A DNA stretch of 64,000 nt, from contig OZ250165.1 in the NCBI GenBank assembly GCA_965238005.1, positions 1-64,000 on the forward strand. The letters run 5' to 3'. The notes under the pieces were generated by a model. The model saw only the letters and a program-made list of their open reading frames with translations. It had not been told where the DNA came from and searched no databases. Position numbers and translations under genes: made by a program. Source of the stretch: Longimicrobiales bacterium. Lineage in GTDB: Bacteria; Gemmatimonadota; Gemmatimonadetes; Longimicrobiales; Gaopeijiaceae. This document shows, piece after piece, positions 7,253 through 28,232 of the stretch (position 1 is its first letter; the number at the start of each line of letters is the position of its first letter).

Positions 7253-7401
7253 GCGACCCGAATTCCCTCCATTTGATGCCGTTTTCCCGCCATTTCAGCC
7301 CGGACGAAACAGATGTGGTCCAATGGCAGGAGCGGCAGATCGTGCAGCCCTGGTTGAACTTAGAAGATTCCTTGCTGGAATCACATCATCCGTACCACGC
7401 C
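7253..7401 (+). repeat. structured island repeat, copy A
   Basis: Invariant GCAGATCGTGCAG at 7335-7347 with TTGAACTTA downstream and paired TTCCC(G/T)CCATTT boxes upstream. Aligns with copies B-F. Confidence 0.85.
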
Positions 7402-7499
7402 TGTGCAGCGTGCGGTCATTCGAGGGGCCCCTGGGGGGCAACGGGCGTGGCCATCGAACGCCACCGACCGTGATCGATCGAACGACTCGTTCGAGGGGC

Positions 7500-7668
7500 T
7501 GGGGGACCCGCCGGACGCTAAGTGCGCGACGGGGAAGTCGTTCGCGGCTGGGTCGTTCACACGCTCGTCGTGACGGCGCCCAATCAGCTCGGCGGCGAGT
7601 TCCGGGCATGGATCCGCTAGAGCTACAGCCTCATGGGGATGCGGGAGCGGCTCCAGAAGAAGCCGTAG
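7500..7668 (+). pseudogene. decayed gene fragment (possibly DUF5655-like C-terminus)
   Basis: WVVHTLVVTAPNQLGGEFRAWIR*SYSLMGMRERL with in-frame stops. Confidence 0.3.
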
Positions 7669-7801
7669 GCCCATCGCGGCGGGTGCTGGCTGGATAGGGC
7701 CTGCGCGCCGGGGCCGTGCCGAGGCTGGTTAGGCTCCGGTCGAGTGTCCGTGGCCGGGCGGCCGAGAAGACGGATTATGCCCGGAATGTGCGGTCTGCTT
7801 G

Positions 7802-8902
7802 CTACTGGGGCGGTGCTTCGTGACCAACGACGTTCAAGTGATGCTGGTATCGGAAAGTTCTTTCCTCCCCGTCGTCCGTGACGCGCTGTCTTGCCTTGAG
7901 GCGTATGGAGTACCCTAGACCTACCATCTCCGCTTCATCGAGAATGACTCTTGCGGCCTTTCCCAAGTCAAGCGCTCTCCCCGTATCGATCAACGCGGCG
8001 AAACCAGGTTCGCCTACATTTGTCTCGAAGTAGCGCCAATCGCCGAAGGTGTGCCTCGCGCGCTCCAATACCGTTCCTATCTCGGAGAAGTCAGCCTCGA
8101 TTCTCGCTCTGCTGTCCTCCGGTAGGTCATCGAATAGGCTGATCAGGTCGTGGCTCTTCCTGGCTTCATCCAATCGGGTCAAGCGGATCGCCTTCATCGC
8201 CAGCTCACAGGCGAATGCGGACATCATGCCGACCGTAATCGTAGAACCCAGGCGCTTCAGGAACTCGTATTCCCGGGCCGTGGAGTGCTTGCCTAGTTCC
8301 TCCTTTGAGATGTGGACGGTGGCCGAGCCGTCGTCGTTCAGGTCGAAGTCCGAGAACTGCGCGACGGTCATCTCGCGCGGTGTTCGCTCGACGCCCGAGA
8401 TCAGGACCCTGGCCTGCAGGAGGAAATACCCGGCGGATCCCGCGGGGAAGCCACTACGAGTGAGCCAGTCCCGCTTGGCGCCTGCGGCCGCCTTCATCTC
8501 GACGTGCTTCAGGAACCGTTCCTCGGGCGGGGGCGCGATCTCGGGGAACACCTTGTAGACGAACTTGGAGTCTTCCTTGTATCGGGGGACGTGCCCCAGG
8601 CCCATGTTTAGCATGTTGAACGTGCCTTCGTGCGACATCTGCCGACCCACGGCTTCCGCGTCCCGCCCCTGGACGAGCCGCCCGCAAACGCGGCACCGTA
8701 TACCCGTTAGAACATGCTTGTCATCTACTCTCCCGAGCAGTCTTCCCCAGCATCGTGTGCATCGCCCCTTCAGTGTTGCCCGCCCTGCGCTTCCGGGCCT
8801 AAAATCGCCCAGGTCAATCGACTCTTCGACATCCCAGTTCCACTCGATCCTGACTGAACCGGTCCTAAGCACGTTCGTCTGGTCGGGGGAGTTATTCGTC
8901 AT
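7802..8902 (-). CDS. hypothetical protein with N-terminal Zn-binding motifs and C-terminal HEPN-like domain
   Basis: CTRC...CRVC, then SAFACELAMKA...RKSHDLISLF...FGDWRY pattern. Confidence 0.65.
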   Translation of the reverse strand: MTNNSPDQTNVLRTGSVRIEWNWDVEESIDLGDFRPGSAGRATLKGRCTRCWGRLLGRVDDKHVLTGIRCRVCGRLVQGRDAEAVGRQMSHEGTFNMLNMGLGHVPRYKEDSKFVYKVFPEIAPPPEERFLKHVEMKAAAGAKRDWLTRSGFPAGSAGYFLLQARVLISGVERTPREMTVAQFSDFDLNDDGSATVHISKEELGKHSTAREYEFLKRLGSTITVGMMSAFACELAMKAIRLTRLDEARKSHDLISLFDDLPEDSRARIEADFSEIGTVLERARHTFGDWRYFETNVGEPGFAALIDTGRALDLGKAARVILDEAEMVGLGYSIRLKARQRVTDDGEERTFRYQHHLNVVGHEAPPQ

Positions 8903-9167
8903 CGTTGGTCGTTCCTTCGGTGGCACGGGCTGGTGGGTTCGCGTGTCCGACCGGTTGTCGAGTCTCAGCCATGGCCAGTATTGACCGACCGGGGGCGAGG
9001 AAACCCGTCCGTTGTCCGGCTCGCTGCGTCTGTGACCGAGGGGGCGGAAAGCGCGTCGGAAAGACCGAGCTGGGGAATAGCAGAGTCATCCAGCCCTTCT
9101 GCTTTCGGGGTCAATTCGCGTTCCCAGGGGCCGCACCGAGTTTTGTTGTCAGGTGCTTCCGGTCCGG

Positions 9168-10403
9168 TCATCGTCCCCCGAGTAACAGGCGCGCTGCGTT
9201 CCATACGCGATTCGGCAACATCGGAAAATACCACGACGCGTGGTCCGCAGTGGGCAGTCGTCGAAGCCGTGGCGGCGGGGAGGGAGCGGATGCAGCTCGC
9301 GAGCGACGCCCTGCAGAGACCGCACGTCCGTGCACGCATGCGGTCATTCGGGTGGCCACGTGGGGACATGCGCGTGGCCATCGGACGCCCGACGATGAGC
9401 GCGCGTCGCAGATTGCAGACTGACCCCGCCGACGTGGAAGCTGGCAGGGCTCCGAACAGTCTGTGAGACTGGTTTCTCGAAGAGTTGCCTTGGACAGATC
9501 CGCACTGCTCAGCTGTGCGCCCTTCAAGGTTCCTCCATCCCACGACGTCCGCGACAAATCTGCGTCCTCAAGATGGGCTTTGGTCAAATCAGGATTCGAG
9601 AATTCTGCTCTCGATATGTCAACAAAAGACAAGTTAGCCTCGGATAAGTTGACATTCTGAAAATGAACCTTCGACAAGTTAGCGCGCCTCTTGGGTCTAC
9701 TATCTATGAGCCTCCAAGATCGAAGGTCATATATGAAACTATGCACGTCGTCCATTCTGAAGGAGCTTAAATCTGATTCGATAATCACCAGATCGAACCC
9801 ATCTCTCTCTTCAAGCTCAATCCGGGCTCGGTCGCGCGTGCCGATGGCACGCAGAACAATTTGAGCGTCGGTCGGTGTCTTGGGATCGCCCGTGTCGATA
9901 GCGGCATCACGGCCAGCTTCGTCTTCAATATGGTCTGTAGTCTTTAGTCCCGTGGAATGGCTCAGGAATGCGCAGAAGAGTCGCATGACTTGTACGTGGT
10001 ACTGGGTCGGATACTCCTTTGCTAAGTGTTGTAGTGCATAGATTCCACCAACACGCACGGTCAAGGCCGAGTGGCCAAACATTTCAACTGCCTTCTGGTG
10101 TTTGTCGTTCCGCAGTGCCCTCTGCGCTATGTCTATCTGGCGTGCAGCTACGACAGTACGCCACATTGCGAATGGTAAGCCGATTAGTGCTACGACAAAG
10201 AGGCCGACGTTTCTCAATGTGGCGCTGCCCGATTCCCCTTCGCTTAACCAGTTCCAGAAGTAGTATCCACCAGGCGACGACACTGTGACATTGCTGAGAA
10301 ACAAGGTAAACAGAAGTCCCGCACCAACCAAAGTGGCAATCACACGAACAACGGTGCGTCGCCGAATTCCTCGTCTCTCTCGATCGCCGGCTAGTGTTAA
10401 CAT
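9168..10403 (-). CDS. membrane-anchored pentapeptide-repeat protein (C-terminus probably disrupted near 9460)
   Basis: Two TM helices, VRVGGIYALQHLAKE, and repeats ANLSK/VNLSE/ANLSF/ADLSR/AQLSS/ADLSK. Sequence after ETSLTD loses repeat character. Confidence 0.8.
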   Translation of the reverse strand: MLTLAGDRERRGIRRRTVVRVIATLVGAGLLFTLFLSNVTVSSPGGYYFWNWLSEGESGSATLRNVGLFVVALIGLPFAMWRTVVAARQIDIAQRALRNDKHQKAVEMFGHSALTVRVGGIYALQHLAKEYPTQYHVQVMRLFCAFLSHSTGLKTTDHIEDEAGRDAAIDTGDPKTPTDAQIVLRAIGTRDRARIELEERDGFDLVIIESDLSSFRMDDVHSFIYDLRSWRLIDSRPKRRANLSKVHFQNVNLSEANLSFVDISRAEFSNPDLTKAHLEDADLSRTSWDGGTLKGAQLSSADLSKATLRETSLTDCSEPCQLPRRRGQSAICDARSSSGVRWPRACPHVATRMTACVHGRAVSAGRRSRAASAPSPPPRLRRLPTADHASWYFPMLPNRVWNAARLLLGGR

Positions 10404-10868
10404 TGTCCTGATCCCAAGAACGCAAGGACCATGTCCTCGAGTTTACGGGAGCGGCATGCGGGCGGTAGCGGCACGGCCTGCTGAGTCCTTCGGGTTTGCC
10501 GAGCGGGAGAATCCAGTAGGATTACCGGTAGCCGCACGGTCGGTGATCCGAAGATAACCCGGTGCTCTCGGCTGCGGTACCGACCGGAAGAGGGCCCGTG
10601 CACCCGCATAAGTCATTGTACACACGGTACGCGACGAGGGCACCTAGCACAGAATGAATGGACTCGGGGCTCGAGTATCTTGGGCCGAAACATCCGAACA
10701 GGAGACAGGCCCACCCCACCCGAGGTTCCCCCCGAACTGGGCAGTCTCGCCAGCGGGAACTCTCTTCAGGCCACCTCCCGAGCCAGGTTGGTCGCTTCCC
10801 CGAGTCGCCACAGATCGGGTGGTGTTAGTTTCCCAATCTGCTGCAGTGCTCGAACCCTGCTGGAAGCC

Positions 10869-12326
10869 ATGGATAAACTTTTGTCACGGGAGCAACCTCC
10901 ACGCTCGACAGACGAAGAGGCAGATCGCTTTCTCGACTTGGTGAATCGCGCCGGGTTCTGGCAATCCATCGATCTACGGGTCTGCGCCATACGTCGCGGC
11001 CGCAGTTGGGTGAACCTCGTCACCCGCGGTTTCCTAGACCATCGCACCACTGGGTCAGTTCCGGCGTTTTCCTCGGTCGATCGGCAGGACTTCCGCGCCT
11101 GGCAGGTGGTCCTTCCGATCACCGACTTGCCCGGCGTCGTGCATGGGATGGTCAGCGGTGCGGCGAGGTTGGGGCCGTCCTCCGTCCGATGCATCGACGG
11201 ATCGGGACAGCCTGCGATGGAGATGAGATGCGTCTTCAGCGAGTTGGCCGCATCCTATCGGAGGGCCGAGTACGACCTTTGGAGCTGCCACGCCCTCGTG
11301 GGCCGTGGCTCCTCGATGTGGGAAGTTGTGAGGCAGGCTATTCCCGATCCGTTCGATCTGGACAACATCATTCGCAGTGGACCGAATGCATACGATGGGC
11401 TTTCCGATCTGGTGCGAAGATTCTGCGCGCGGCCCCGGGCACTGGGGGTTCAACGCGAGGAACTACAAGAGGTCCAAAGCAAGATTACCACCGTCGACTT
11501 GATCGCCCCGCTGGCCGTGAGTTTCGATCGCGGGAAGGTAAACGCTTCGCTCGACCACGTGCGCGTTGCCCTGCGGGCCGCCGCGGACGTCTTTGTCGCG
11601 AACGCGGAGCTTGTCTGGACCTTGGGCTCTTCGGGAGAGCCCCTGCGTCACGGATCGGCCAAGCTCGGCGAGCGCGATTGGGCGGAGGTTGGGAGTGCCC
11701 TCCACTCGCAACTGGACATCCCGATCCGGAAGGGTGACGCCACCGTTACGCTCTTCATTCTCGTCGGAGGCGGGTGTGTGGACTGCGTGTCTGTGCCTCT
11801 CGCAGGCTCCAATCCTCGGATTAGAGCTTACAACGTCTTAGACCCAGACGGTCACGAGTTCGTCGAGAAGCTGCGGGACGAAGAGTGGCGCAATGCGAAG
11901 GAGTTTGAGGCTGCCGTTGGTCAGCTATTCTTCTTCTTGGGCTTCCAGGTGGACCCCCTGTGCGCACAGAAAGGGCTGGGGAACGCTGTCGATCACCTCG
12001 CTCATGAACCGAGTTCTTCCATCATCCTGGCTATCGAATGTACGGTCGGGCCAGCAGACGGGGGCGGAAAGCTGAGCAAGTTGATTGCTCGGTCAAAAAA
12101 TTTGCGGAGCAGACTTCCCGACAGCGAAGTGATCGCGGTCCTCGCGACCGCCAGACCACATGCGGAGCTATCCAAGACCGAGGTGGAGAAGGCCGAGCGT
12201 GATGATGTTGTGCTTCTCGCCCAAGAGGATCTTCATGACCTTTGGACCGAGGCGCAGGCCGGAGAGACTAGTGCCCAGGCGGTCCGCCGGTTCCGCCACC
12301 AGCTTTTCCAACGAATGATGTCGTGA
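10869..12326 (+). CDS. hypothetical protein with C-terminal PD-(D/E)XK restriction-endonuclease-like domain
   Basis: EFEAAVGQLFFFLGF...AVDHLA...LAIECT resembles an Mrr-like nuclease motif. The frame is open from 10680, so the start is uncertain. Confidence 0.65.
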   Translation: MDKLLSREQPPRSTDEEADRFLDLVNRAGFWQSIDLRVCAIRRGRSWVNLVTRGFLDHRTTGSVPAFSSVDRQDFRAWQVVLPITDLPGVVHGMVSGAARLGPSSVRCIDGSGQPAMEMRCVFSELAASYRRAEYDLWSCHALVGRGSSMWEVVRQAIPDPFDLDNIIRSGPNAYDGLSDLVRRFCARPRALGVQREELQEVQSKITTVDLIAPLAVSFDRGKVNASLDHVRVALRAAADVFVANAELVWTLGSSGEPLRHGSAKLGERDWAEVGSALHSQLDIPIRKGDATVTLFILVGGGCVDCVSVPLAGSNPRIRAYNVLDPDGHEFVEKLRDEEWRNAKEFEAAVGQLFFFLGFQVDPLCAQKGLGNAVDHLAHEPSSSIILAIECTVGPADGGGKLSKLIARSKNLRSRLPDSEVIAVLATARPHAELSKTEVEKAERDDVVLLAQEDLHDLWTEAQAGETSAQAVRRFRHQLFQRMMS

Positions 12327-13264
12327 GAGCCAGTCAGACTTTCCGATTCCTCAAAGCGAGGCGACGAGTGATTGTTCAAGGAGCACGCTGGCTCAGACTT
12401 TGGCTTGGACCGATCTGGGTCGCAATAGTACTCGCCGTTGTCTCTGCAGGAGGTCTTTACGTCCTTGGTAGATGGTATGAAGAATTCAGCGATATGTACC
12501 AGGGAGTATTTGTGGAAGCTGTTGGAGCGGTGATGGATATCATTGTGTTTGGGATCATCATCGCTCTATTCGTTTTCATCAGAGAGCGCCGACGAGAAGT
12601 CTCCAGGCAGATGGAGTTGATAGACGACTTCAAGAAATGGAATTCAGAAGAAGCTCGCCATCGAATTGCCGGTGCGATCAAGAGGCTGAACCGATTGGGA
12701 CGAACTGCGATTGATTTCACCGGCATCGAGATAAGCCATTTCTCATTCCGGCGTCACGGTATAACTAGAATCGTGGGTTCGACATTTTTCGATGGTGTCT
12801 GGTACACTATAGGCGACAGAGATCATGTGAAGTTAGAGGATGTAGATTTTGCCGATGTGAATTGCCAGAACGTCATATTTTCAAGAGGTAACCCTTTTTA
12901 CAAAATAGGAAGAGCTTTTGCTTTGTTTAAGGATTGCAGATTTGTGAATGCTCAATTATGCGGTGCATTGTTTAGGGGTGCCCACATTGAATGGTCAGCG
13001 AAACCTCCGGAAGAGATGGGAGAATGGGAAGATATGGGCGATGGGACAAGAAGCTTTATACAGACATATATGCCACCGTTTATGGGGGCAAATCTTAAGG
13101 GGACATCTTTCGAAAAAGCGTCTTTCAAAAATGCGGACTTTCGAGATGCAAAGAATATTATGCACTGTGAGTTTCGTGGGGCTCGCGGTCTAGACAGATG
13201 TATGTTTGACGACGATGAAGTAAGAACATATGTGTTGGCCTCCGTTCGGCATGAGTCTCAATGA
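12323..13264 (+). CDS. membrane-anchored pentapeptide-repeat protein
   Basis: Two TM segments and repeats ANLKG/TSFEK/ASFKN/ADFRD. Visibly AT-richer than its surroundings. GTGA overlap with the upstream gene. Confidence 0.8.
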   Translation: MRASQTFRFLKARRRVIVQGARWLRLWLGPIWVAIVLAVVSAGGLYVLGRWYEEFSDMYQGVFVEAVGAVMDIIVFGIIIALFVFIRERRREVSRQMELIDDFKKWNSEEARHRIAGAIKRLNRLGRTAIDFTGIEISHFSFRRHGITRIVGSTFFDGVWYTIGDRDHVKLEDVDFADVNCQNVIFSRGNPFYKIGRAFALFKDCRFVNAQLCGALFRGAHIEWSAKPPEEMGEWEDMGDGTRSFIQTYMPPFMGANLKGTSFEKASFKNADFRDAKNIMHCEFRGARGLDRCMFDDDEVRTYVLASVRHESQ

Positions 13265-13645
13265 TTCGAGGGCTATCTGAGGTGGCGAAGCCTTTAGTGG
13301 ATGAGGCGTCGTGCTCGAGAGCGAGGGGCTCAGGCGTGTAGGACGCTCCGTCTGTTCTAATACGGTAATCACCTGACACCCAGCCTCGCCGCCGACAGCA
13401 GCAGGGACTCAAAGGCGAGGCCTTGTCACTGGGCCAGCCGACTGCTTCTGGTTCCAGGACACCCGCGACGGCTTGGACAAAGCGCCAGCACACCCTAACG
13501 CAATGGCGCATAAGTAAGTTCGGTCATGGCACGGACGGAAGCTCGAGGGCGTTGGATTCGAGCCCGCACTGACCCGCAGCGGCGCGCGGAGCGTGCCCAG
13601 ATCGTCCTGGGTTCGGGCGGTTTGGGTATCTAATGGCGTGGCAGT

Positions 13646-13788
13646 GATTCTCGCCAATCAATTCCGTATTCCCCGCCATAGGGACACGGTGGAGTCAGAT
13701 CTCGTCAAACGGCGAGGGTGGCAGATCGTGCAGTCCTGTATGAACTTATGCGATTCCTCGCTGTGATTTACGCTATCCGTGCTCCGCT
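13646..13788 (+). repeat. structured island repeat, copy B
   Basis: Invariant 13-mer at 13721-13733. Arms ACGGCGAGG and CCTCGCTGT. Confidence 0.85.
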
Positions 13789-14002
13789 GAAGGGACAAAC
13801 TGCTCGGGATCTTGCTGGGTTGCGCCCCCCCCTGGATTGCGGCCGCTCTGGGAGCGCTAAAGGCGGTTCAGATAACCGCGAGACGCCTCGCATCTTCCCC
13901 ATGATCCCGGGCCGGTGGCAGTCTGGGTATTGGAATGGCGCAAGGCCGCTAGCTAGCACGAAAGGCAGCGTTGTTTGACCTGTTGCGAAGCCACAGTGAG
14001 CA

Positions 14003-14279
14003 GCGCGAAGAGGACGGTATGGGCGTTTGCGGCCGGGCGTCGAGAATCTTCGACGCGGCGCGGAAGCTGGGCGACGGCAACAGTCCGATTATCTTCGACA
14101 ACGAGCGTGGTGGACAGCTGGACGGAAAGCCGGTTGGGGCGACTGCTGGAGAGGGGATCGCGACCGGGCGACATAGCCTCCGATCATCGTTCTGCGACTG
14201 GGCGACCGAGGAAGCGGACCATCCTCGAGAAGTCGTCGAGGCGGCCTTGCCGCGTGATCAGACTAAGGCCGAGGCGGCG
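14003..14279 (+). pseudogene. P4-type tyrosine integrase fragment
   Basis: CGRASRIFDAAR...RHSLRSSFCDWATEEADHPREVVEAAL...KAEAA. Ends just before the catalytic Tyr. Confidence 0.8.
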
Positions 14280-14315
14280 ATGATCCGCGCTGGCTGGAGA
14301 CACCGGCAGCGGCTC

Positions 14316-14458
14316 GGCCTCCCGCCATTTGATGCCGGTCTACTGCCATTCCGGTACGCTGGAATCAGATCCGGTCTAACGGCAAGAATGGCAGATCGTG
14401 CAGTCCCGGTTGAACTTACATGATTCCTTGCCGTGATTCAGACCACCGACAGTCCGCT
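14316..14458 (+). repeat. structured island repeat, copy C
   Basis: Invariant 13-mer at 14391-14403. Arms ACGGCAAG and CTTGCCGT, plus GAATCA/TGATTC. Confidence 0.85.
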
Positions 14459-14720
14459 GCCGATGCGGGAGACCTGCCGGGTGCGCTCGCGCTCGACCTC
14501 GGCCGCCGGGGCCGTCCACGTCCGCGTGCGCGCCATCGCCCGGCGTATCAGCGCCGACAGGGGCACGCCGGCGGCCGCGGCCTTGGCCCGCCAGTCGGCG
14601 AACTCGGTCGGCGAAACGCGGACGGCGACCATGACCGTGCGGCGCTTACCCATCGGGATGCGCCGCCACGGAGGGAAGGGGGGCGACGCCCCGGCGCGCG
14701 AACTCCACCGGAGCGCGGGT
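14438..14720 (-). pseudogene. mobC: MobC relaxosome accessory protein, truncated
   Basis: RRTVMVAVRVSPTEFADWRAKAAAAGVPLSALIRRAM...ERTRQVSRIG. Breaks off where the conserved NNLNQ motif should follow. No relaxase is present. Start approximate. Confidence 0.75.
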
Positions 14721-14744
14721 CTCTTGGGGTTCGAAGGGGCGGAG

Positions 14745-14790
14745 TCCCTCGCCAGCCCCTGTGTATGACACAGGGTAGGCTGGCTCTCGT
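14745..14790 (-). other. putative oriT
   Basis: Inverted repeat GCCAGCCCCTGTGT-ATG-ACACAGGGTAGGCTGGC directly upstream of mobC. Minus strand TACCCTG resembles the MOBP nic motif TATCCTG. Confidence 0.6.
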
Positions 14791-15273
14791 GCCTTAGGCG
14801 CGCCAAACACCCCCCGGCGCTGCGAACCTTGGGTCGTGGGAATCTCCATACCCGTACACGGAGAAGCCCGCACGGGGCCGTGTCAACAGCGCAAGAAGAG
14901 GCGTTGTCCGAGGGGTTCCAGCGCCGTCCCGAAGGGGAACGGGCCGCCGCCAGCGGCACCTCCATCGCTTCCCGAAGAGCCTGTTGGGGCGGCCGGTGGT
15001 GGCGGACCGGGTGTGTGCCTCAGGCCACACGCCGGAAGTCTGCTGCTGCTCCGATTGACGGTACAGAGTCGAGCCGTGGCGATGCCGACCGCCGAGTCGG
15101 AACCTGCCCTCTGACAAGATCTCCGCCGGGAGCCGACGGGTGGTGTCTTCCGCGCCACTGGCGGAGACCTCCGCCGGCTCGCGTACGTTCCCGGACATCT
15201 ACAGACAATACAAGCACTTAGGAGATTTCCTAAGAGTTGACGCGCCCGAAAACGGTGTTTCACCGTTACGGGC

Positions 15274-15555: not shown

Positions 15556-15566
15556 GAGACCAAACG

Positions 15567-18927: not shown

Positions 18928-19084
18928 TGGGGTTTTCGAGAAAATTTCCCGGAGTCGGAGTCCTGGATTCCAGGCTTTCAGCGGGGTTACGTAGTGGAGA
19001 AGGTATTGGAGTGCGGCTTGGATCCCGCTACATCACGTGGGCAATGCGGTGGCACTCCCCAAAACCCATCCCAAACTCCGGTAG

Positions 19085-21586
19085 TCAGAATAGATCGGCA
19101 TCGAGAAGCCGCAGCGCTTCTTCGTCATACTCGACCACGGCCTCGCGCACCCCATCCGACTCACTCGAAACATTGGCGATCTCATAACCCATGGCCCGGT
19201 AGCCCTTCAGGCGCTTCTCGAACATGCGGCGGAGCATAGGCACCTCCCGGTCTACGTAGTCGAAGATGCGAACGTCGGTCTTTCCATGGTGTCTACGGTG
19301 GAGGCGACCAGCGTACTGGACCAGGGTCCCTCTCCAAGCGACTGGCATGGTCAGGAACAGCGTGTCGAGGCGGGCGTCGTCGAAGCCCTCCCCCGCGAAG
19401 CGCCCGGTCGCGACGATCACTCGTTCCTCGGTGTCCGGAATCGATGCGAGCATCTCTGCGGCCGCACGCCTGCGCTTCTTCCCCATCCCTCCCTGCAGTA
19501 TCACCAGGTTCCGCGCCACTCGCCGGAGTTCTTCGGCAAAGTACTCGAGATGATTCTTTCGCTCGGTCAGCAGGATCGGAGACCGGCCGTCCTCCAGGGC
19601 GCGGATGACGTCGTCAACGATCATCCTGTTCCGAGCCGCATCGAGCGTGATCTTGCCATAGATCTCCTGGATCCCGGGCACTCCGCTCGAGGCATCGATC
19701 CGGAATCCGGTGTCCCGGACTACAAGTCGGTGCGGGAACGGACGGTCAGCGGCTTGCCTCTTGGCGTCAACGGAGTAACGGATGGGCCCGAGTTGGAACT
19801 CCAGAATCGGGTGATGCCCGTCCCTCCGTCTCGGGGTGGCAGTGAGGCCGGTCACATACCGGGCCCGCACCTCCCGCATTACGCGTTCGAAGGACACCGC
19901 AGGGACGTGATGGCATTCGTCCACAAGCACGTGGCCGTAGTTCGCCACGAGGTCTTCGACGTCCCCACGACGCACTAAGCTCTGGATCATGGCGACGTCC
20001 ACTGCCCCGGTGACGCTGCGCCTACCGCCCCCGATCTGCCCAATGTCGTCCGGCTTCAGATCGAGGAAGAGGGCGAGCTGCGCCCGCCACTGATCGACGA
20101 GCTGGGTGCGGTGGACGATGACGAGCGTGCTCCTGCCGCGACTCGCGATGAGGTGGGCGCCGACCACGGTCTTTCCGCTTCCGGGTGGAGCCACGAACAC
20201 TCCGATGTTCCCCTCGATTAGGGCTCGAACGGCGGCTTTCTGCAGATCCGTGAGCTCTCCGTGGAACTGCAAGTTCAGCGGCTCTCCCTCGATCCGCTGA
20301 TCATCGACCACGGGCTCGATGTCGTGATCCCGTAGTACCTCTTCCAGCGCCGACAGACAGCCCCGAGGCAAGCCGATGTGTCCCGGTAGGTTCTCCGCAC
20401 AACTGATGATTCGCGGGGTCAGGGCCGTCGAGAGCCGCATGGCCTGCTTCTCATAGAACTGCGGGTTCCGGAACGCGGCCAGGCGGTTGATCCGGTCGAT
20501 GAGAGCCGGCGGCAGGTCCGCCTTCTCCACGAAAACCTGTTGCGCGAGCACGGCCTTGACCTTGCGGGGGAAGGGGCCTTCGATGCGTGGTTCCGGTCTT
20601 GGTCCTGAGGTCGGGCGCAGCCAGGGGACTTCGTCTTCCTTGTCGATGGCCCCGGCGTCCCGCAAGCCCAGGACCTTTCCACTGGCCGACGCCTCGCGAG
20701 CGAGCTCCTCCACCCTATGCGGATTGATCCGAGGCAGTGCCGCGAGATACTCCCACTGCTCGGGGAAAGGCTCCCACCTGGCGTCGACGAACACTGTATT
20801 GCCACTCTTCCTGGCTTCGTACTGCAGAGGGAGCGCGATGAGGTTCCCGAACCCCCCGCGCGGCATCGTGTCCTGGTTCGGGAAAAAGCGGTCATAGGAA
20901 TGCATTGGAAGCCCCGGGCGGGCCGCCATCGTCTCCGTGAGCAGGTAGGACGCCATCTTGCGGGCATCGCTCGCTGGTAAGGGTGCTGAGAAGAAGAACC
21001 AGACGTGTGCTCCATCACCCGAGCGGGAGCGCTCGACCGCCGGGGTGAGCCCGAAGCGCCGGCCCGTCTCCACGTAGGCGGCTACATCCCCCTGCCAGTG
21101 CCCCTTGTCGAAGTCGACGGCGAGGAACCGGCAGGTCTCGTCCTCCATCAGCGGGTACACACCCGCGACGTGGCGGCCTTGAAGGTGGTCGAAGAGCACC
21201 TCATCCGTGACGTCCAAGAACGCTTGGTTTGGGCACTCCCCGCACTTGACCCGTGGCTTCTCGCAGACGCCGTGGACCCACTCATTCCCACAAGCCGGCG
21301 CGTAGCCCTGCTTCTTCGTCCTCGAGTTTCGCCAAAGCTTCGGAAAGACGTCCGTTCGTCCCGAGAAGAGGGAGCGGAAGAGAGCCACCTTCTCCAGCTT
21401 TGATCCAGGCGCCCTGCCCAGGTCGAGCACCGGAAGCTCCAAGATCGGACTCTCACCCGAGGCCAGGTCGTTCCGCAGCTCCTCAAGGCGATTTTGGACA
21501 TGAGTCCGCTCGCTGTCGAGCTCTGCAAGCCGAGCTTCGGCGGCGGCGATCTCCTTGCGAAGAGAGTCTTGGTCGGGACGAGGCAT
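19085..21586 (-). CDS. TOTE-type archaeo-eukaryotic primase domain fused to an SF2 (ResIII-like) helicase
   Basis: LFRSLFSGRTDVF, Cys cluster, FLAVDFD, ERSRSGDGAHVWFFF. Then APPGSGKT, DECHH, LTAT, GEGFD, QYAGRLHR. Confidence 0.88.
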   Translation of the reverse strand: MPRPDQDSLRKEIAAAEARLAELDSERTHVQNRLEELRNDLASGESPILELPVLDLGRAPGSKLEKVALFRSLFSGRTDVFPKLWRNSRTKKQGYAPACGNEWVHGVCEKPRVKCGECPNQAFLDVTDEVLFDHLQGRHVAGVYPLMEDETCRFLAVDFDKGHWQGDVAAYVETGRRFGLTPAVERSRSGDGAHVWFFFSAPLPASDARKMASYLLTETMAARPGLPMHSYDRFFPNQDTMPRGGFGNLIALPLQYEARKSGNTVFVDARWEPFPEQWEYLAALPRINPHRVEELAREASASGKVLGLRDAGAIDKEDEVPWLRPTSGPRPEPRIEGPFPRKVKAVLAQQVFVEKADLPPALIDRINRLAAFRNPQFYEKQAMRLSTALTPRIISCAENLPGHIGLPRGCLSALEEVLRDHDIEPVVDDQRIEGEPLNLQFHGELTDLQKAAVRALIEGNIGVFVAPPGSGKTVVGAHLIASRGRSTLVIVHRTQLVDQWRAQLALFLDLKPDDIGQIGGGRRSVTGAVDVAMIQSLVRRGDVEDLVANYGHVLVDECHHVPAVSFERVMREVRARYVTGLTATPRRRDGHHPILEFQLGPIRYSVDAKRQAADRPFPHRLVVRDTGFRIDASSGVPGIQEIYGKITLDAARNRMIVDDVIRALEDGRSPILLTERKNHLEYFAEELRRVARNLVILQGGMGKKRRRAAAEMLASIPDTEERVIVATGRFAGEGFDDARLDTLFLTMPVAWRGTLVQYAGRLHRRHHGKTDVRIFDYVDREVPMLRRMFEKRLKGYRAMGYEIANVSSESDGVREAVVEYDEEALRLLDADLF

Positions 21587-21604
21587 GACCGGGTGACCTC
21601 CGAG

Positions 21605-22207
21605 TCACCGCCCTGGGGCGGATTCGAGAAACCCTGCGCTTTCGAGGCGCTGCGCAAGACGCCGGAGGCCGGCCCGCGTCCGAAGCGCATCCAAGTATGC
21701 GACCGGTGCCAGAGGATCCCGCACAAGAGAGGTGCGATGAGCTTCTGCCGCCCCGACGATTCGCTCTGAGTCCATCGCCCAAAGCCGATCAAGGAAGCTG
21801 GGTGGTCGTATCGGCTCAAGGCCGAAGCCGGCGAGCAGGGCCTTCGGGAAGTGCTTGGTGTTCCAGGTCACGATCACATCCGCTTCATAGTGAACCGCTA
21901 GCGCAAGCACATGTCGGTCACCCTCATCGGGTACCTGCACGTCCTGCTCCGCACCGTGGAAGCGGCTCCCGCACGCTTCGGGGAAGGCCCGTTGCATCTG
22001 GGAATCCAGGTGATCGAGCTGCTCCTCCGTCAGATCGGCTTTGACACGCAGATTTCGGCGGACCTCATCCAGGATCAACTCGGACCAGAGCGGCTCGTAG
22101 AGCCCTGCCTGCGCAAGCCAGAGAAGGAGATTCCGTAGCTGGAATGGATACAAGACGTTTGCATCCAGAACGGCAAGGAGCTTCAGGTCAGTAGCCCTGG
22201 CCCGCAT
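21605..22207 (-). CDS. PIN-domain toxin (PIN_3/VapC-like)
   Basis: AVLDANVLY, WSELILDE, PDEGDRHVLA, IVTWNTKHF. Confidence 0.88.
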   Translation of the reverse strand: MRARATDLKLLAVLDANVLYPFQLRNLLLWLAQAGLYEPLWSELILDEVRRNLRVKADLTEEQLDHLDSQMQRAFPEACGSRFHGAEQDVQVPDEGDRHVLALAVHYEADVIVTWNTKHFPKALLAGFGLEPIRPPSFLDRLWAMDSERIVGAAEAHRTSLVRDPLAPVAYLDALRTRAGLRRLAQRLESAGFLESAPGR

Positions 22208-22652
22208 CGGCCGTGGTCTTCGCCATTTCGCGAAGAGCCGCGTCGCGCTCCCGTTGCGATGCCGCCTCCCCACCACGACGCATCGTCGCCTTGTATCGCT
22301 CCACGTCCGCCCGGAGGATGCGACGGTGCGTCCCCACCATTCTGTAGCTCAGTTCCCCCTGCTCAAGAAGGTCGATGAGTGTGGGGCGCGACATGCCGAG
22401 ATCCGACGCCGCTTGGCTGGTCGTGTACTCGGTGTCCTCGGCGCAACCCTCCACCAGAACTGCGTTCCCCTTGGCGAACTCACTTAGAATTCTATCCAGC
22501 GCCTTACCCGTACCGGCGGACAACTCCACCCCGGCGACCCGCGTGCTCCCACCACGACTTCGCTGCCTCCGAGCGGCTCGGAGGGCTTCCTTCATCCTCC
22601 TTGCGGTATCAACGTCCTGTGCGGAAGGCTCGATTCTGTTCTTGACTGCCAT
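22188..22652 (-). CDS. excisionase-family HTH_17 DNA-binding protein (antitoxin-like)
   Basis: YTTSQAASDLGMSRPTLIDLLEQGELSYRMVGTHRRI. Confidence 0.85.
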   Translation of the reverse strand: MAVKNRIEPSAQDVDTARRMKEALRAARRQRSRGGSTRVAGVELSAGTGKALDRILSEFAKGNAVLVEGCAEDTEYTTSQAASDLGMSRPTLIDLLEQGELSYRMVGTHRRILRADVERYKATMRRGGEAASQRERDAALREMAKTTADAGQGY

Positions 22653-22833: not shown

Positions 22834-23081
22834 AGGGTTCTTCACCGGTAAGGACACCCGCCGCAATCTGGAGCCTTCCTTAGAGGTGAGCCGCGTGAGG
22901 AACCAGCCCCGCTCAAGGTTCCGGCCTCCGCGAAGATAACAGGAAGGAGGCCCGCTAGCGGCATCGAGGACGATGCCCAGTTGCTGGGAGGGGACTCGTG
23001 CCGATTGGCTGTGCAAGCGCGCGTGGAGGCGACCCGGATTCCCGCCACTTGATGCGATTTCCCCGGCATTTCAGTACATTC
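22834..23081 (+). repeat. 248-bp inverted repeat, arm 1 (partner 28180-28427)
   Basis: Reverse complement of 28180-28427 with one mismatch that I could see. Confidence 0.9.
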
Positions 23082-23178
23082 TAATCAGACTCGGTCCAAC
23101 GGCAAGAACGGCAGATCGTGCAGTCCTAGTTTAACTTAGACGATTTCTTGCCGTGATTCACGCCACCGTTACTCCGCC
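23029..23178 (+). repeat. structured island repeat, copy D
   Basis: Invariant 13-mer at 23111-23123. Arms ACGGCAAGAA and TTCTTGCCGT. Confidence 0.88.
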
Positions 23179-23349
23179 TTGCGGGCATGCGGTGGCAGAT
23201 GTGCATCCTCTTGCTCGCATTGAACTTACGAGCGTGACGTGCCGGATTCCCGCCAATTGATTCCCGCTAATTGGGTTCAGGCCCGAACTCTGCGGCGGTT
23301 GTCGAGCGCGTTCCTGAGCTGGTCCTCGTCGGCGTGCTGGTAGCGCACG

Positions 23350-23488
23350 CCACGAGTGGTGTGAATCACGGCAGGATATCGTCTAAAGTCAACCAGGACT
23401 GCACGATCTGCGTTTCTTGCCGTTCGACCATGCCTGAGTCCACCGCACTAGAATGGCGGGGAAATCGCATCAAATCGCGGGAACCCCG
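23350..23488 (-). repeat. structured island repeat, copy E
   Basis: CTGCACGATCTGC at 23399-23411. Inverted relative to copy D. Confidence 0.85.
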
Positions 23489-23849: not shown

Positions 23850-24045
23850 AGCAGTTTCTGTACCATCGTTAACGGTTCCAGGGAAAGCATGGAAGGGCAG
23901 GAGGGCGGCCCCGCTGGCTGGTGTGGATGTCCTGGCATCCCCGGGGAAGAGCCGCTGCAGCAACTCCGGGTGGGACCCCCGCTCTCCTGCCCCGTAAAGT
24001 TCGGGGGCTACGCTAGCGACCCTAGTGGGTTCTGGCAAGGACCTG

Positions 24046-25356
24046 CGGACAAGCGCGCGATCAGGGAGTTCCTGAAGCGGGAGGGGCAGTTTCTGCTTCC
24101 GATGCTTGAGCTCGTGGAGCAGACGGAGGTCGCGATCGACGAAGTCATCCAGGTGATGGGACGAGCGACGATCGAAGCGGTGCTGGAGATGAGCGCCGAG
24201 GGTGTGGCAGGCGTGAAGCAGGCAGGTCGGTCACGAGCGGAAGACGACACGGTGTGGTATGGCCGGCAGGGTGGTGTGGTTTACCTGTCGGACCGGAAGG
24301 TGCGTGTGGAGCGGCCACGGCTCAGGCGCCGGGGCGCCGGGGAGGGTGGCGAGGTCGAGGTGCCGGCGTACGCAGCGATGCGGAGACCGGGCGCCGTGGC
24401 GGATCGGATGCTCGAGGTCCTGATGGCGGGGGTGAGCACGCGGAAGTACGGCCGTGTGATCGGTGAGATGGCCGACACGGTCGGGGTGAGCAAGTCGGCG
24501 GTGAGCCGTGAGACGGTCGAGGCCTCGGAGCGCGTGCTGAAGGAGCTGATGGAGCGCCGGCTGGATGCGTGGGACCTCCTGGTGATCTACCTGGACGGGA
24601 TCCAGATGGGCTCGCACCCTTGCTGGTAGTGTCCCTAGATTTGGACTCAGACGGAAAGAAGCACGTGCTGGGCGTGAGGGAAGGAGCGAGTGAGAACGCC
24701 GAGGTGACCAGCGCGCTCCTAGAGGATCTGGTCGAGCGCGGCCTGGACCCGGGCAGGCGGCGGCTGTTCGTGATCGATGGCTCGAAAGCGCTCAGGAAGG
24801 CGATCGAGAAGGTGTTCGGCCAACGTCACCCCATCCAGCGCTGCCGCAACCACAAGCTCCGCAACGTGCTGGGTCATCTGCCGAAGGATCAGCATCCTCA
24901 GGTGAAGGCGGCGTTCCGGGCGGCGATGAAGCTGGACGCGAAGCAGGGCGAGCAGAAGCTCGAGCAGCTCGCCCGATGGCTCGAGCGCGACCACCCCTCG
25001 GCCTCGGCCAGCCTACGCGAAGGCCTCAGCGAGATGTTCACGATCAACCGGCTCGGCCTCCCGCCGCGGCTGAGGAAGTGCCTGGGCTCGACCAACCTGA
25101 TCGACAGCACCCACTCGGGCGTAAGACAGAAGACCCGCAGGGTGACCAACTGGAAGAACGGAGCGATGGCCTTGCGCTGGGCTGCGGCCTCGTTCGTGGA
25201 GACCGAGAAGAGCTACCGGAGGATCATCGGCTACGACCAGCTCTGGATGCTCAGGGCCCACCTCGACGACCATGAACCGGTTGCCGAAATGAGAAAGGCA
25301 GGCTAACAAGGAGACTCTCCGGAGCCACCACCTTCAACTGTCAGCGGGACACTATC
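24046..25356 (+). mobile_element. second copy of the IS256 element, 5'-truncated and frameshifted
   Basis: Nearly identical to the reverse complement of 5700-6993. Local rearrangement at about 24619-24642 splits the ORF. The right end differs in its terminal bases. Confidence 0.9.
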
Positions 25357-25401
25357 TTTCCGTGCAGAAAAGGGGATACAAGATGATCCCGGAGTGCGCC
25401 T

Positions 25402-25575: not shown

Positions 25576-25603
25576 ATATACGATCGCGATCGCGATCGTA
25601 TAT
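25576..25603. repeat. perfect 28-bp palindrome
   Basis: ATATACGATCGCGATCGCGATCGTATAT equals its own reverse complement. Confidence 0.9.
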
Positions 25604-26523: not shown

Positions 26524-26536
26524 GGGGGAGAACGGA

Positions 26537-27142
26537 ATGATCGAGACACCATCCGGGTGGATTCATGAGGAGGACCTCACGCGAGCTGAGGTTCTCGATC
26601 GCCGGGATAGCTTCGAGCTCAGGCAGGCATGCGTGGCGTACCTGAAGTCTCATCACACTCTAACCCGCCCGAAGTCGATTGGGGCTGCGAGCGACCGAAA
26701 TGTGCAGAAGGCACTCGTCCAGGCTTCAATACGACGGTTGGTCGGTATTAGGGCTCGTGATTCCGCACTACACTCATTACTCTCACAGCGAGAGGGCGTA
26801 ATCGAAGAGCAGTCCAAGACGATTGACCGGCTCCTTGCGTACATCCCAGCTCGCGCGGCACCCCTTTCGGATCAGCGCCTCCAGGAGATCGCCGGCTACG
26901 TTTCCGACTTCCTAACCAAGCGAGATCTATCGGCCAACGTCCATGTGGTCGACGAAACGGGACCGGATACGCTTGCATGCCATCGCCTCACCGTCATGCT
27001 CGACAAAGCAGACATCCGTACCATCTCACAGATCGAAGACGAACTCTTCGACCTCCTGGCGGAGATAGCGGAACCTGAAGAAGCTCCTTCGCTGAACCTC
27101 ACCGTCGCATCTGAAGCCGAGCAGGATGGACCCGCGGCGTAA
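26537..27142 (+). CDS. hypothetical protein (possible antitoxin partner)
   Basis: RBS GGGGGAG. Overlaps the downstream HEPN gene. Confidence 0.7.
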   Translation: MIETPSGWIHEEDLTRAEVLDRRDSFELRQACVAYLKSHHTLTRPKSIGAASDRNVQKALVQASIRRLVGIRARDSALHSLLSQREGVIEEQSKTIDRLLAYIPARAAPLSDQRLQEIAGYVSDFLTKRDLSANVHVVDETGPDTLACHRLTVMLDKADIRTISQIEDELFDLLAEIAEPEEAPSLNLTVASEAEQDGPAA

Positions 27143-27560
27143 TCTTGAGGTTGCCGAGGCCCTCAGGGATCCCGACTCTTCGGTGCACGCTGAGGCTTCA
27201 TACAGGGCGTCCTGTTCGAGGGCTTACTACGCTGCCTTCGGTCATGCACGAGAGGTTCTGGATCGTGCGGGTATCCCAACCGACGGGGCTCCCGGTATGA
27301 GTGCCCATGCCCGAGTGGCTTCAGCTCTCAAGGGTTCGACTGTTGGCCAGGTTCGGGCGGCCGGCTTCAGACTCGAAAGGCTACATAGCACCCGAAAGCA
27401 GGCAGACTACGATGTGGGAACCAGAGCAGCCAAGCTAAGACATCCAATTGATGAGACAGAGGCGGAGAGGGCTTCGGAGACTGCCGTGCGGATAGTCGAA
27501 CGTATCGAGAGAGCCCGCCCGAAGGATAAGGCTCTCGGCGTTCCCAACCCCGGGCCATAG
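27126..27560 (+). CDS. HEPN-domain protein
   Basis: SRAYYAAF and LHSTRKQADY motifs. Confidence 0.85.
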   Translation: MDPRRNLEVAEALRDPDSSVHAEASYRASCSRAYYAAFGHAREVLDRAGIPTDGAPGMSAHARVASALKGSTVGQVRAAGFRLERLHSTRKQADYDVGTRAAKLRHPIDETEAERASETAVRIVERIERARPKDKALGVPNPGP

Positions 27561-27594
27561 AGGGGCGCCAGCTCGGGACGGTGGGGCTCCCTCC

Positions 27595-28085
27595 CCGCCT
27601 CGATGCCGCGTGCCTTCAGATCCCGCAACACCTCCGACCAGGACTCGACCGACTCTCGGTAGCCCGATCTCAGGGCCAACACCTCCTTCGTCCCGTCTCG
27701 CATCGCGCCCAGCACCACCAGCAGCGCCGCCTTGTCCCGCTCGAGCCCTGCCTTCACGTAGATCCCGTCCGCCCATACGTAGACGACCTCACGGCCCTCC
27801 AGGCGACGCTGGCTCCATTCCTCGAACTCCGCCGTCCATCCCGCCCGCAGTCTCCGAATCGAAGACTTCGACAGCGGTGCCCCCTCGCCTAGCAGTCCCC
27901 GCATCGCCAGCTCGAAGTCTCCCTCCGCCAGCCCGTGCAGATACAGCTCCGGAAGCAGAGCGCCCAGCTCCTTCGTCCGCCTCGCGAACAACGGCAGCAC
28001 CCGACTCTCGAACCGCTCCTCGACGCCCCGAACCCGAGGGCGTCGGAGTGTGATCGTGCCCGAGCTCATCGCCAACCGCCTCGGC
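27595..28085 (-). pseudogene. IS256-family transposase internal fragment (different element)
   Basis: RRPRVR...FESRVLP...LYLHGLAEGDF...YVWADGIY...GYRESVESW. Truncated on both sides. Confidence 0.88.
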
Positions 28086-28232
28086 AGAGTACAGATGGTG
28101 TGAATCACGGCAAGTAATCGTCTAAGTTCAACCAGGACTGCACGATCTGCCGCACTTGCCGTCAGACCATGTCTGATTCGAATGTACTGAAATGCCGGGG
28201 AAATCGCATCAAGTGGCGGGAATCCGGGTCGC
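28085..28232 (-). repeat. structured island repeat, copy F
   Basis: CTGCACGATCTGC at 28138-28150. Arms ACGGCAAGT and ACTTGCCGT. Confidence 0.88.

Follow-up and report, generated by a model that had tools for sequence, protein, structure and literature searches.

The stretch of DNA analysed here (64,000 nt, positions 1 to 64,000 of contig OZ250165.1), hereafter the window, carries six copies of a repeat, A to F, set among parts of integrase, transposase and mobC-like genes (Table 1). The six copies named in the original prediction were all found at the positions given there, and none lies beyond 28.3 kb within the window, as had been said of its other half. The 13-mer GCAGATCGTGCAG is exact in 6/6 window copies, where 0.13 would be expected and none of 100 shuffles reached six or more. 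Two TCCCGCC-type boxes, 21-22 nt apart, precede the core in the alignment and TTGAACTTA follows 3' of it in the window copies, both as predicted. The core had been described as 85 bp long and nearly gapless. The copies do align across about 145 nt with no more than one or two single-base gaps, but the conserved unit measures about 165 nt, not 85. A coding region was rejected, because the variation has no three-base periodicity (0.589/0.627/0.517) and most copies contain stops in most of their frames.

Table 1. Features of the window, named according to the attachment-site interpretation developed in the text (int2, tyrosine integrase gene; arm I, int2-adjoining arm; arm II, integrase-distal arm)
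Feature	Position	Strand	Remarks
25.8-kb int2 element, window part	1-14457		other end is int2 at genome 4,827,945-4,829,111 (minus) with arm I
Copy A, arm II	7261-7400	+	half-site CACGC, overlap CTGTGCA (7401-7407), then GCGTG
Copy B, arm II	13646-13787	+	overlap TGAAGGG (13788-13794)
P4-type integrase gene, 3' third only	14025-14312		downstream of copy B
Copy C, arm II	14317-14457	+	right end of 25.8-kb int2 element; overlap TGCCGAT (14458-14464)
mobC/NikA-like gene, 5' part	14465-14965	-	cut at the IG/NLNQ codons by the element ending with copy C
Copy D, arm II of unrecombined attP	23037-23177	+	overlap CTTGCGG (23178-23184)
Arm I of copy D's attP	23185-23282	+	35-nt spacer, TTGAACTTA (23220-23228), two ATTCCCGC boxes (23246-23267), then int2 end on the opposite strand
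int2 remnant, residues 367-386	23283-23342	-	80% identity to query int2; starts at catalytic-tyrosine codon
Copy E, arm II	23345-23485	-	overlap GCTACCA (23338-23344, minus strand)
IS256-family transposase gene without its first ~70 codons	27407-28076	-	target DNA joined to copy F
Copy F, arm II	28084-28224	-	overlap CGAGGCG (28077-28083, minus strand)

Distribution of the repeat

The repeat had been thought to be confined to the island, which proved wrong: a search of the 4.84-Mb genome with nhmmer gives 18 copies at E < 1e-3, of which 12 lie outside the window and 14 are close to full length. Of 36 other genomes from the same family, 7 also have copies, with 1 to 18 matches each. Genome-wide scatter with no link to rearrangement breakpoints had been named as an argument against a recombination site; the copies are indeed scattered, but every resolvable one sits at a recombination junction and the breakpoint link holds. 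In one relative (G007) 15 copies have no P4-type integrase gene within 6 kb, and only some copies lie near int2, where the relative orientation differs, so that many copies are taken to be relics.

Junctions at the fixed end

Forty-two copies were found for the comparison of junctions, and 38 were usable once two chance matches and two copies cut by another insertion had been dropped. All 38 have the same fixed end, GTGATTCA plus 17 nt, followed by a 7-nt segment (the overlap) and then by unrelated DNA. The last 5 nt before the overlap, the left half-site, are mostly TC(C/T)GC and end in GC in 28/38 copies, and the right side after the overlap begins with GC in 17/38. The half-sites are inverted: at least four of the five flanking positions are complementary in 16/38 copies, compared with 2/38 in a control shifted by 3 nt. 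Between them the 38 copies have 29 distinct overlaps. The crossover is 26 nt away from the palindrome described below, 3' of GTGATTCA, and outside all four proposed helices.

A copy may have its upstream or its downstream flank in common with others, but no two copies agree in both flanks around a bare unit, and the two flanks of one copy are unrelated and never form contiguous target DNA or one gene. Insertion of a small unit into integrase genes was rejected, since the two flanks of a copy never come from one gene. That the unit is a MITE or the end of an insertion sequence is scarcely credible, even though it is multi-copy, has sharp edges and adjoins IS256-, IS3- and IS21-type genes at some copies: neither terminal inverted repeats nor target-site duplications were seen, the flanks are never a contiguous target, the partner end is an int2 arm kilobases away, and the nearby IS genes are targets (copy F) or independent insertions.

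Matched element ends and their targets

Copy C and an arm I at 4,827,844-4,827,850 have the same overlap, TGCCGAT, and bound an element of 25.8 kb, a length that takes the single contig as circular across its ends. When the outer flanks of this element were joined, they gave a 227-aa mobC-like frame with the joint at residue 180, and residues 11-227 align across the joint with an independent copy (55% identity, E 7e-60); the 3' part of the mobC-like gene adjoins the int2 arm at genome position 4,827,844. Nested within this element are copies A and B as well as several IS copies. A second pair, copy r669076 and the site at 680,909, has the overlap TGGGCCA in common and delimits an element reckoned at about 11.8 kb, the joined flanks of which give a 231-aa mobC-like frame that aligns across the joint with an independent copy (residues 77-223, E 3e-11). 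In genome G061 arm II and an int2 arm I lie about 5 kb apart, both with the overlap CGGGCTG. The overlap was thus identical from end to end in 3/3 closely examined pairs, and the split target was rebuilt for two of the three.

Other overlaps are less simply arranged. TGATCCA occurs at r794923, 701351 and 848176 and CTGATAA also recurs, and neither forms a simple pair. In the tRNA-Ile gene at 2,838,657 the anticodon loop serves as the overlap and the 5' half of the tRNA makes up the 35-nt spacer. The reciprocal junction at 891 kb, 1.9 Mb away, consists of the tRNA 5' half, the overlap and the reverse complement of the repeat end. Rearrangements must be assumed for the overlaps that do not pair, that is, for TGATCCA and the tRNA-Ile junctions.

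In most cases the target is formed by the most highly conserved codons in genes of other mobile elements, namely the catalytic tyrosine region of two integrase families and the IGxNLNQ and ARWAN codons of mobC. Further targets are tRNA anticodon loops, including that of tRNA-Arg(CCT) in G026, and the IS256 transposase; the junction between copy F and the IS256-family transposase gene is also present in G005. The flank of copy A was compared with both tRNA-His genes and matches neither. The overlap of copy E falls within the C-Y-Q codons of the int2 gene at the attP of copy D, and the rest of that gene was removed by the element ending with copy E.

The partner arm and int2

The genome has exactly 20 occurrences of TTGAACTTA: 8 in repeat copies, 8 beside the 3' end of int2 together with two ATTCCCGC boxes, and 4 elsewhere. 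The arm that adjoins int2 (arm I) carries the same boxes and TTGAACTTA motif as arm II, and the spacer from overlap to motif is 35 nt, or 34 at one site (sites counted by eye). Two unrecombined attP sites were found. In the first, copy D, the overlap, 35 nt, the motif, the boxes and the int2 C-terminus are contiguous. The second consists of copy r675460 and the int2 gene at 676 kb, and its 35-nt spacer is the 3' half of tRNA-Ile. A crossover at TTGAACTTA in the loop had also been considered and was abandoned, since the overlaps 35-39 nt away proved to be common to the element ends. Co-variation of TTGAACTTA between the two arms was too weak to use; the motif is identical in G000 and G005, agrees at 8/9 positions in G007 and at only 6/9 in G061.

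The int2 product is a 387-aa tyrosine integrase with a Phage_integrase catalytic domain at residues 203-371. Pfam gave no match for an arm-binding domain in it, and a sequence search of the PDB gave no solved relative at E up to 0.01. The P4-type integrases of this genome carry Arm-DNA-bind_3 and Phage_int_M domains, whereas int2 has the Phage_integrase domain alone, with half-sites of the form ..GC N7 GC... Three P4-type islands sit inside the repeat. The repeat as an integration target for P4-type integrases, in the way that a tRNA gene can be one, was rejected, because the unit's own 3' edge is the att junction of int2 elements, and the P4-type islands are a secondary use of it.

The 16-mer GCAGATCGTGCAGTCC is found exactly 22 times in the genome, 12 times in repeats and 10 times just upstream of the int2 start codon, and it sits 22 nt 5' of every int2 start codon. 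The same two contexts recur in G005 and G007. In public genomes 81 of the 121 loci listed with the exact 16-mer belong to neither context, which is about the chance expectation for a 16-mer in 596 Gb. The 16-mer could be read as the nick region, and the palindrome as the relaxase hairpin, of an oriT or other cis mobilisation site, as would suit an inverted repeat combined with an invariant core and the mobC/NikA-like genes and MobA/VirD2-like relaxase near some copies. This is very unlikely, since the mobC genes beside copy C, r2700094 and r669076 are interrupted targets and no partners, no relaxase gene stands at the second context 5' of int2, and the att architecture covers every part of the unit.

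Proposed attachment site

The repeat is most probably the integrase-distal arm (arm II, about 165 bp) of the attachment site used by integrative elements with an int2 gene, and we put the probability of this interpretation at roughly 0.85. The earlier idea of a recombination site that shuffles island modules was right in that the repeat is a recombination site marking module boundaries; the site is, however, a conventional double-stranded attP/attR of tyrosine-integrase elements and not a folded-strand site, as indicated by the 7-nt overlap, the inverted half-sites, the arm motifs on both sides and the integrase gene beside the other arm. The repeat marks the edges of nested islands and is an ordinary kind of site in an unusually elaborate form.

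In the unrecombined attP, read in the orientation of the repeat, arm II has two ATTCCCGCC boxes, then the imperfect palindrome CGGCAAGA ... TCTTGCCG, which encloses the 16-mer GCAGATCGTGCAGTCC and TTGAACTTAG, and last GTGATTCA and the 17 nt of which the final 5 are the half-site (mostly TC(C/T)GC), before the 7-nt overlap. Arm I follows. Its half-site (mostly GC...) lies inside the 35-nt spacer, after which come another TTGAACTTA, a further two boxes and, on the opposite strand, the 3' end of int2. Int2 is predicted to exchange strands within the overlap, and an integrated element has arm II, the overlap and target DNA at one end and int2 with arm I at the other. Lineages differ in overlap and half-sites and hence in target; the arm stays conserved. 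Int2 or accessory proteins may bind the boxes and TTGAACTTA as arm-type sites. The same factor may bind the 16-mer in arm II and upstream of int2, which would couple recombination to int2 expression, and the palindrome is probably a protein-binding or DNA-bending feature.

Compensatory stems and folding

The compensatory stems of the original prediction do exist, and both their pairing and their double-sided changes exceed the controls. In the 17 copies of G000, 87.3% of cells pair, compared with 27.8-50.4% when the partners are slid, and 9 cells are changed on both sides, compared with 4.0 +/- 1.6 in shuffles (0/500 reach 9). In 50 copies from several genomes, which are related and whose alignment was fitted to the model and so favours structure, 86.0% of cells pair against 23.5-55.0% slid, and 53 cells carry changes in both partners, where shuffles give 19.4 +/- 4.2 (0/500 reach 53). 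On the plus strand G-T mismatches outnumber A-C mismatches, 83 to 38, and the variable side hairpin retains its hairpin potential in G007. A palindrome bound by protein explains the compensatory changes, but not obviously the G-T excess.

These counts are what a structured RNA would call for, be it a small RNA or a regulatory element in the 3' part of the int2 transcript, with the position at element ends then being secondary. The multi-stem ncRNA offered as an alternative in the original prediction nevertheless has no direct support, and we consider it quite unlikely. RNAalifold gives only -6.04 kcal/mol for the copies, with a covariation term of 0.06. Single-strand folds are weak (z -0.65 to -2.26) and alike on both strands; copy D, for instance, folds at -12.7 kcal/mol on each strand (z -2.26 on plus, -1.79 on minus). 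The 3' end of the unit is a recombination junction and no terminator, the motifs recur in the double-stranded partner arm, and the pair counts come from related copies in a model-fitted alignment. Rfam gave no family: Rfam 15 had 0 matches over the whole window at gathering scores, and 7000-28600 had at E up to 5 only three chance-level matches to eukaryotic or archaeal RNAs, none on a copy. The only RNA-labelled run, a metatranscriptome in the form of contigs, covers 23176-23344 with a single contig, which is no evidence for transcription, strand or ends. The DNA runs are metagenome contigs, in which joints at copies are indistinguishable from repeat-induced chimeras.

The original prediction also likened the logic of the repeat to that of attC. 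For some group II introns, attC or terminator hairpins are the homing sites, and three copies of the repeat in G001 carry a group II intron, always at the same point; the imperfect palindrome is also of attC-like size and its wobble pairs are strand-biased. A cassette-shuffling site that recombines in folded single-stranded form is still highly improbable here. The core in which the crossover takes place is of the duplex type, has a 7-nt overlap and lies outside the palindrome, and the partner site is no palindrome. The NCBIfam model integrase_gron reached 20.1 bits against a cut-off of 265, so there is no integron integrase, and there are no cassette arrays of the one-gene-one-site kind, the elements being 5 to 26 kb long with the integrase at one end.

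Within the attachment-site interpretation, arm II might also act as a state-dependent regulator of int2 in a manner that recalls lambda sib, which we consider unlikely. In the excised or unrecombined form, int2 transcription would run toward the overlap and into arm II, and the read-through transcript would carry the reverse complement of GCAGATCGTGCAGTCC and the palindrome. If the leader included the sense 16-mer, the transcript could pair its 5' end with its 3' end over 16 bp, and integration would abolish this duplex by separating int2 from arm II. If true, this would explain the invariance of the 16-mer at both places across genera as well as the compensatory variation of the palindrome.

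Comparison with known attachment sites

The lambda-type attP is served by a heterobivalent integrase and has arm-type sites on both arms, inverted core half-sites and a 7-bp overlap, in about 240 bp. The int2 attP resembles it in total length (about 250 bp), in the repeated motifs on both arms, in the 7-nt overlap between inverted half-sites, in the integrase gene beside one arm and in the overlap common to the ends of integrated elements. It differs in that Pfam matches no arm-binding domain in int2, in the conserved palindrome of arm II (45-bp span) and in the repetition of the arm II 16-mer at the 5' end of the integrase gene. Related literature includes the eLife 2016 Holliday-junction paper (PMC4880445).

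Some islands integrate in tRNA genes at the anticodon loop and bring with them a copy of the tRNA part that they displace. As in such islands, the int2 overlap can be the 7-nt anticodon loop (tRNA-Ile, and tRNA-Arg(CCT) in G026), the tRNA stem supplies the inverted half-sites and the 35-nt spacer of the int2 element copies a tRNA half. Unlike such islands, the int2 arm family also uses overlaps in mobC, two integrase families and the IS256 transposase. Islands integrating in tRNA genes reportedly have a sublocation preference (Williams 2002); related literature includes the Islander database paper (PMC4383910). With the integron attC the repeat has in common an imperfect palindrome of about 60-140 nt and a position at the edges of gene modules; it differs from attC in having no IntI, no cassette array and a crossover outside the palindrome. 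Among the texts open to full-text search, no paper on the int2 element was found.

Significance

The repeat may serve as a practical marker in these Gemmatimonadota (Longimicrobiales-type) genomes, in which each copy would show where an int2 element ends on the side away from its integrase gene, and the next seven bases would name the target of that element. The marker lets the nested island of the window be taken apart into a 25.8-kb element in a mobC gene and an unrecombined attP, the integrase gene of which was in turn interrupted at the catalytic-tyrosine codon by a further element of this family. The 29 overlaps on one conserved arm form a natural data set on the change of target by tyrosine integrases.

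Results

The window contains exactly six occurrences of the 13-mer GCAGATCGTGCAG, all where the original prediction had placed the copies of the structured repeat (chance expectation 0.13, with none of 100 shuffles reaching six). Repeat finding and alignment of the copies gave a nearly gapless unit of about 145-165 nt, with two TCCCGCC-type boxes on its 5' side and TTGAACTTA directly 3' of the core. The window comprises bases 1-64000 of one 4.84-Mb contig, and the further claim that the repeat is confined to the island had to be given up, because a profile search found 18 copies genome-wide at E < 1e-3, 14 near full length and 12 outside the window. With a covariance model, the family was detected in 7 of the 36 other genomes that belong to this family-level group, whereas the 24 genomes searched from two sister families gave none. 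The 16-mer GCAGATCGTGCAGTCC was found exactly at no fewer than 121 public loci; among the matches listed, 25 had the context of the repeat, 15 that of the start of an integrase gene, int2, and 81 neither. Titles were available for 28 of the listed loci of the first two kinds, 25 of them labelled Gemmatimonadota, Gemmatimonadetes, Longimicrobiales, Gemmatimonadaceae or Candidatus Palauibacter, and the other three carried other labels.

Alignment with flanks showed that similarity among the copies ends at one fixed point, beyond which lie pieces of unrelated genes. These targets include the 3' half of tRNA-Ile(GAT) starting at the anticodon loop and, in a different genus, the 3' half of a tRNA-Arg(CCT). 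Others are a P4-type integrase, of which the final ~35 codons are present, an IS256-family transposase that lacks the first ~70 codons (copy F, with an identical junction in the relative G005), and a mobC/NikA-like gene cut at the IGxNLNQ codons (copy C and the copy at genome position 2700094). The junction was measured on 38 of 42 copies found, two chance hits and two copies cut short by another island having been left out. All 38 run GTGATTCA, 17 nt, 7 nt and then target DNA; 29 different 7-mers were present, and in 28 copies GC closes the left side. The 5 nt on either side of the 7-mer are complementary at four or more positions in 16/38 copies, as against 2/38 in a shifted control. Such an arrangement has the form of a tyrosine-recombinase core, with a 7-nt overlap between two half-sites.

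Of 22 exact genomic copies of the 16-mer, 12 lie within the repeat and 10 some 22 nt ahead of the start codon of int2, which encodes a 387-aa tyrosine integrase (Phage_integrase catalytic domain, residues 203-371) and is present in about eight full-length copies; the int2 orthologues of the relatives G005 and G007 are preceded by the same 16-mer. Directly after the int2 stop there are two GGCGGGAAT boxes, which are those of the repeat in reverse complement, followed by ~17-20 nt, then CTAAGTTCAA, the reverse complement of TTGAACTTAG in the repeat, then 35 nt and a 7-mer, beyond which the copies diverge. TTGAACTTA occurs exactly 20 times in the genome, eight times each in the repeat and in the int2 arm and four times elsewhere. 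int2 is strongly multiplied in some relatives (G062 and G061), a 4.2-Mb draft genome having 41 matches and a second genome 10. Between the 16-mer and the int2 start an inverted repeat, CATCATCGA/TCGAATGATG, was noticed by eye, which as RNA would loop the AAAGGAA ribosome-binding stretch and pair the start codon.

The two arms could be matched across whole elements. Copy C ends in TCCGC followed by TGCCGAT, the 7-mer that also ends an int2 arm near the other end of the contig. Joining the outer flanks computationally gave one 227-aa mobC-like frame. Its residues 11-227 align, across the joint at residue 180, with a mobC-like copy that is independent of it (55% identity, E 7e-60). On a circular contig the predicted element would measure 25.8 kb; it takes in the opening 14.4 kb of the window. 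TGGGCCA is common to a second pair of arms, by reckoning the ends of an element of ~11.8 kb, and the outer flanks restore a mobC-like frame of 231 aa, whose alignment likewise crosses the joint. CGGGCTG is shared by a third pair, ~5 kb apart, in the relative G061. Unrecombined sites were also present. Copy D is the integrase-distal arm (arm II) of an unrecombined attP, in which CTTGCGG, 35 nt, TTGAACTTA, two boxes and the last 20 codons of int2 follow one another. After the copy at 675460 come CTGATAA, the 35-nt tRNA-Ile 3' half, the motif, both boxes and an int2 that has decayed. Upstream of the intact tRNA-Ile gene there is an int2 with its arm; here the spacer of 35 nt is the 5' half of the tRNA and the overlap its anticodon loop. 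The reciprocal junction is the odd partial repeat copy found at 891 kb.

Copies A and B belong, as arms, to older elements that are nested within the 25.8-kb element, whose end, inside mobC, is copy C. A further element ends in copy E; it integrated into the int2 gene of the attP of copy D, exactly at the C-Y-Q codons with the overlap GCTACCA, which recurs in an int2 gene of G005. The element that ends in copy F has the overlap CGAGGCG; this overlap lies in the A-E-A-A-Y codons of P4-type integrase genes (copies at 2818351 and 4790720) and is also found in an IS256 transposase gene (copy F and two G005 copies). The modules between the copies are therefore nested, truncated integrative elements. 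The primase-helicase region between copies C and D is cargo or a replication module of the island; its 833-aa protein carries both a TOTE-type archaeo-eukaryotic primase domain and a helicase, and its neighbours are TerB-domain, PIN_3 and HTH_17 (excisionase-type) proteins. Further IS256-family copies lie near other arms (loci L041, L088 and L089).

Positions of the repeat copies and associated features
Feature	Position	Strand	Remark
Copy A	window 7261-7400	+	
Copy B	window 13646-13787	+	
Copy C	window 14317-14457	+	
Copy D	window 23037-23177	+	
TTGAACTTA beside copy D	window 23220-23228		
Two boxes beside copy D	window 23246-23267		
Last 20 int2 codons beside copy D	window 23342 to 23283		80% identity
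Copy E	window 23345-23485	-	
Copy F	window 28084-28224	-	
int2 arm paired with copy C	genome 4,827,844-4,827,850		7-mer
Second pair of arms	genome 669076 and 680,909		repeat copy and int2 arm
int2-type element in catalytic-tyrosine codons of another integrase gene	window 23283-23344; locus L091 (G005) near 6000		
P4-type integrases hit at A-E-A-A-Y	genome 2818276-2818368; 4790652-4790732		
IS256-family element	window 5689-6993		intact 429-aa transposase gene
IS256-family element, inverted copy	window 24045-25351		99-100% identical; two frames via small indel near 24618-24642
833-aa primase-helicase	window 19085-21586	-	neighbours 18025-22652
CATCATCGA/TCGAATGATG inverted repeat, example	genome 846944-846975		
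P4-type integrase paralogues, examples	genome 857266-858558; 996566-997846		
Group II intron (G001)	1283-1500 of loci L053, L058, L064		
Tandem duplication	window 48473-48968		248 bp, two copies, 100% identical
Three-copy repeat, ~160-190 nt	window 32202-32389; 35628-35789; 44317-44484		93-97% identical; two direct, one inverted; core-genome-like half
tRNA gene arrays	genome 1035994-1037821; 4451264-4453598		dense; 17 genes each
tRNA-Val 5' fragment	genome 112136-112175		lone, 40 nt

The arm is itself a target of other elements. A P4-type island is inserted directly after CTTGCCGT of the arm in this genome and in the relative G002, and two other P4-type islands directly after TTGAAC. Three copies of the relative G001 carry a group II intron between CCTTGC and GTGCG, which matches Rfam group-II-D1D4-4 directly after the break (49.1 bits against a cut-off of 49); the DNA downstream of these introns is 99.9-100% identical over 1485 nt. 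P4-type integrase paralogues (Arm-DNA-bind_3, Phage_int_M and Phage_integrase) number more than 20 in the 4.84-Mb genome, and one adjoins tRNA-Val(TAC), with an 80%-identical paralogue within a repeat copy. Many arms of G007 (loci L072-L086) lie beside defence-type genes, including nSTAND NTPases, Schlafen/AlbA_2, Abi_alpha, AAA_15/AbiEii-like, an E2/ThiF/JAB/patatin protein, a cytosine methylase and a TIR protein, and one arm subfamily there has a 250-nt IS3-type transposase gene fragment at its 5' side.

Discussion

Our results indicate that the repeat is very probably (about 0.85), on sequence grounds, the integrase-distal arm of the att site of int2 elements. It behaved as a tyrosine-integrase att site in every sequence-level test, and not as attC, a MITE or any Rfam family in the tests that define these. 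The stems of the original prediction, which read the repeat as an attC-like site or a structured RNA, are indeed present: 87.3% of cells pair on 17 copies of this genome, compared with 27.8-50.4% when the partners are slid. In 50 copies from several genomes, which are related to one another and were aligned by fitting to the structure model, 86.0% pair and both sides have changed in 53 cells, versus 19.4 +/- 4.2 in shuffles (0/500), e.g., CGGCAAG/CTTGCCG to CGGTAAG/CTTACCG in G007. Such compensatory changes are what inverted half-sites co-evolving with one protein would show. G-T mismatches outnumber A-C mismatches 83:38, with few independent events behind the excess; co-evolving half-sites leave it unexplained, and arm II may have a folded-strand or RNA role. 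The window search of Rfam matched no family to the repeat, folding of the single strand is modest and similar for the two strands (copy D, -12.7 kcal/mol each, z -2.26 and -1.79), and the RNAalifold consensus is weak (-6.04 kcal/mol). A coding region was ruled out, as the variation lacks three-base periodicity and most frames contain stops.

With the repeat taken as an att arm, its parts can be compared with the lambda paradigm, the model for arm-type sites on attP arms. By this analogy the boxes and TTGAACTTA, which have the same orientation on both arms, would be arm-type sites for Int2 or accessory proteins, and the palindrome may help to bend or organise the arm. Because a second 16-mer stands in front of int2, one factor is suggested to act at both places, coupling recombination to integrase expression. 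Integrases and directionality factors acting at the int promoter have precedents in P4 Vis and the KplE1 system. The listings of a literature search contained no paper on the int2 element.

The att series of int2 forms a clean natural set of retargeted overlaps on one arm, and the palindrome and duplicated 16-mer of arm II are among its points of interest. In rival mobile elements int2 targets the codons that are most conserved, among them that of the catalytic tyrosine in two integrase families. The hits on integrase genes at this tyrosine may reflect competition between elements or the mere use of conserved sequence.
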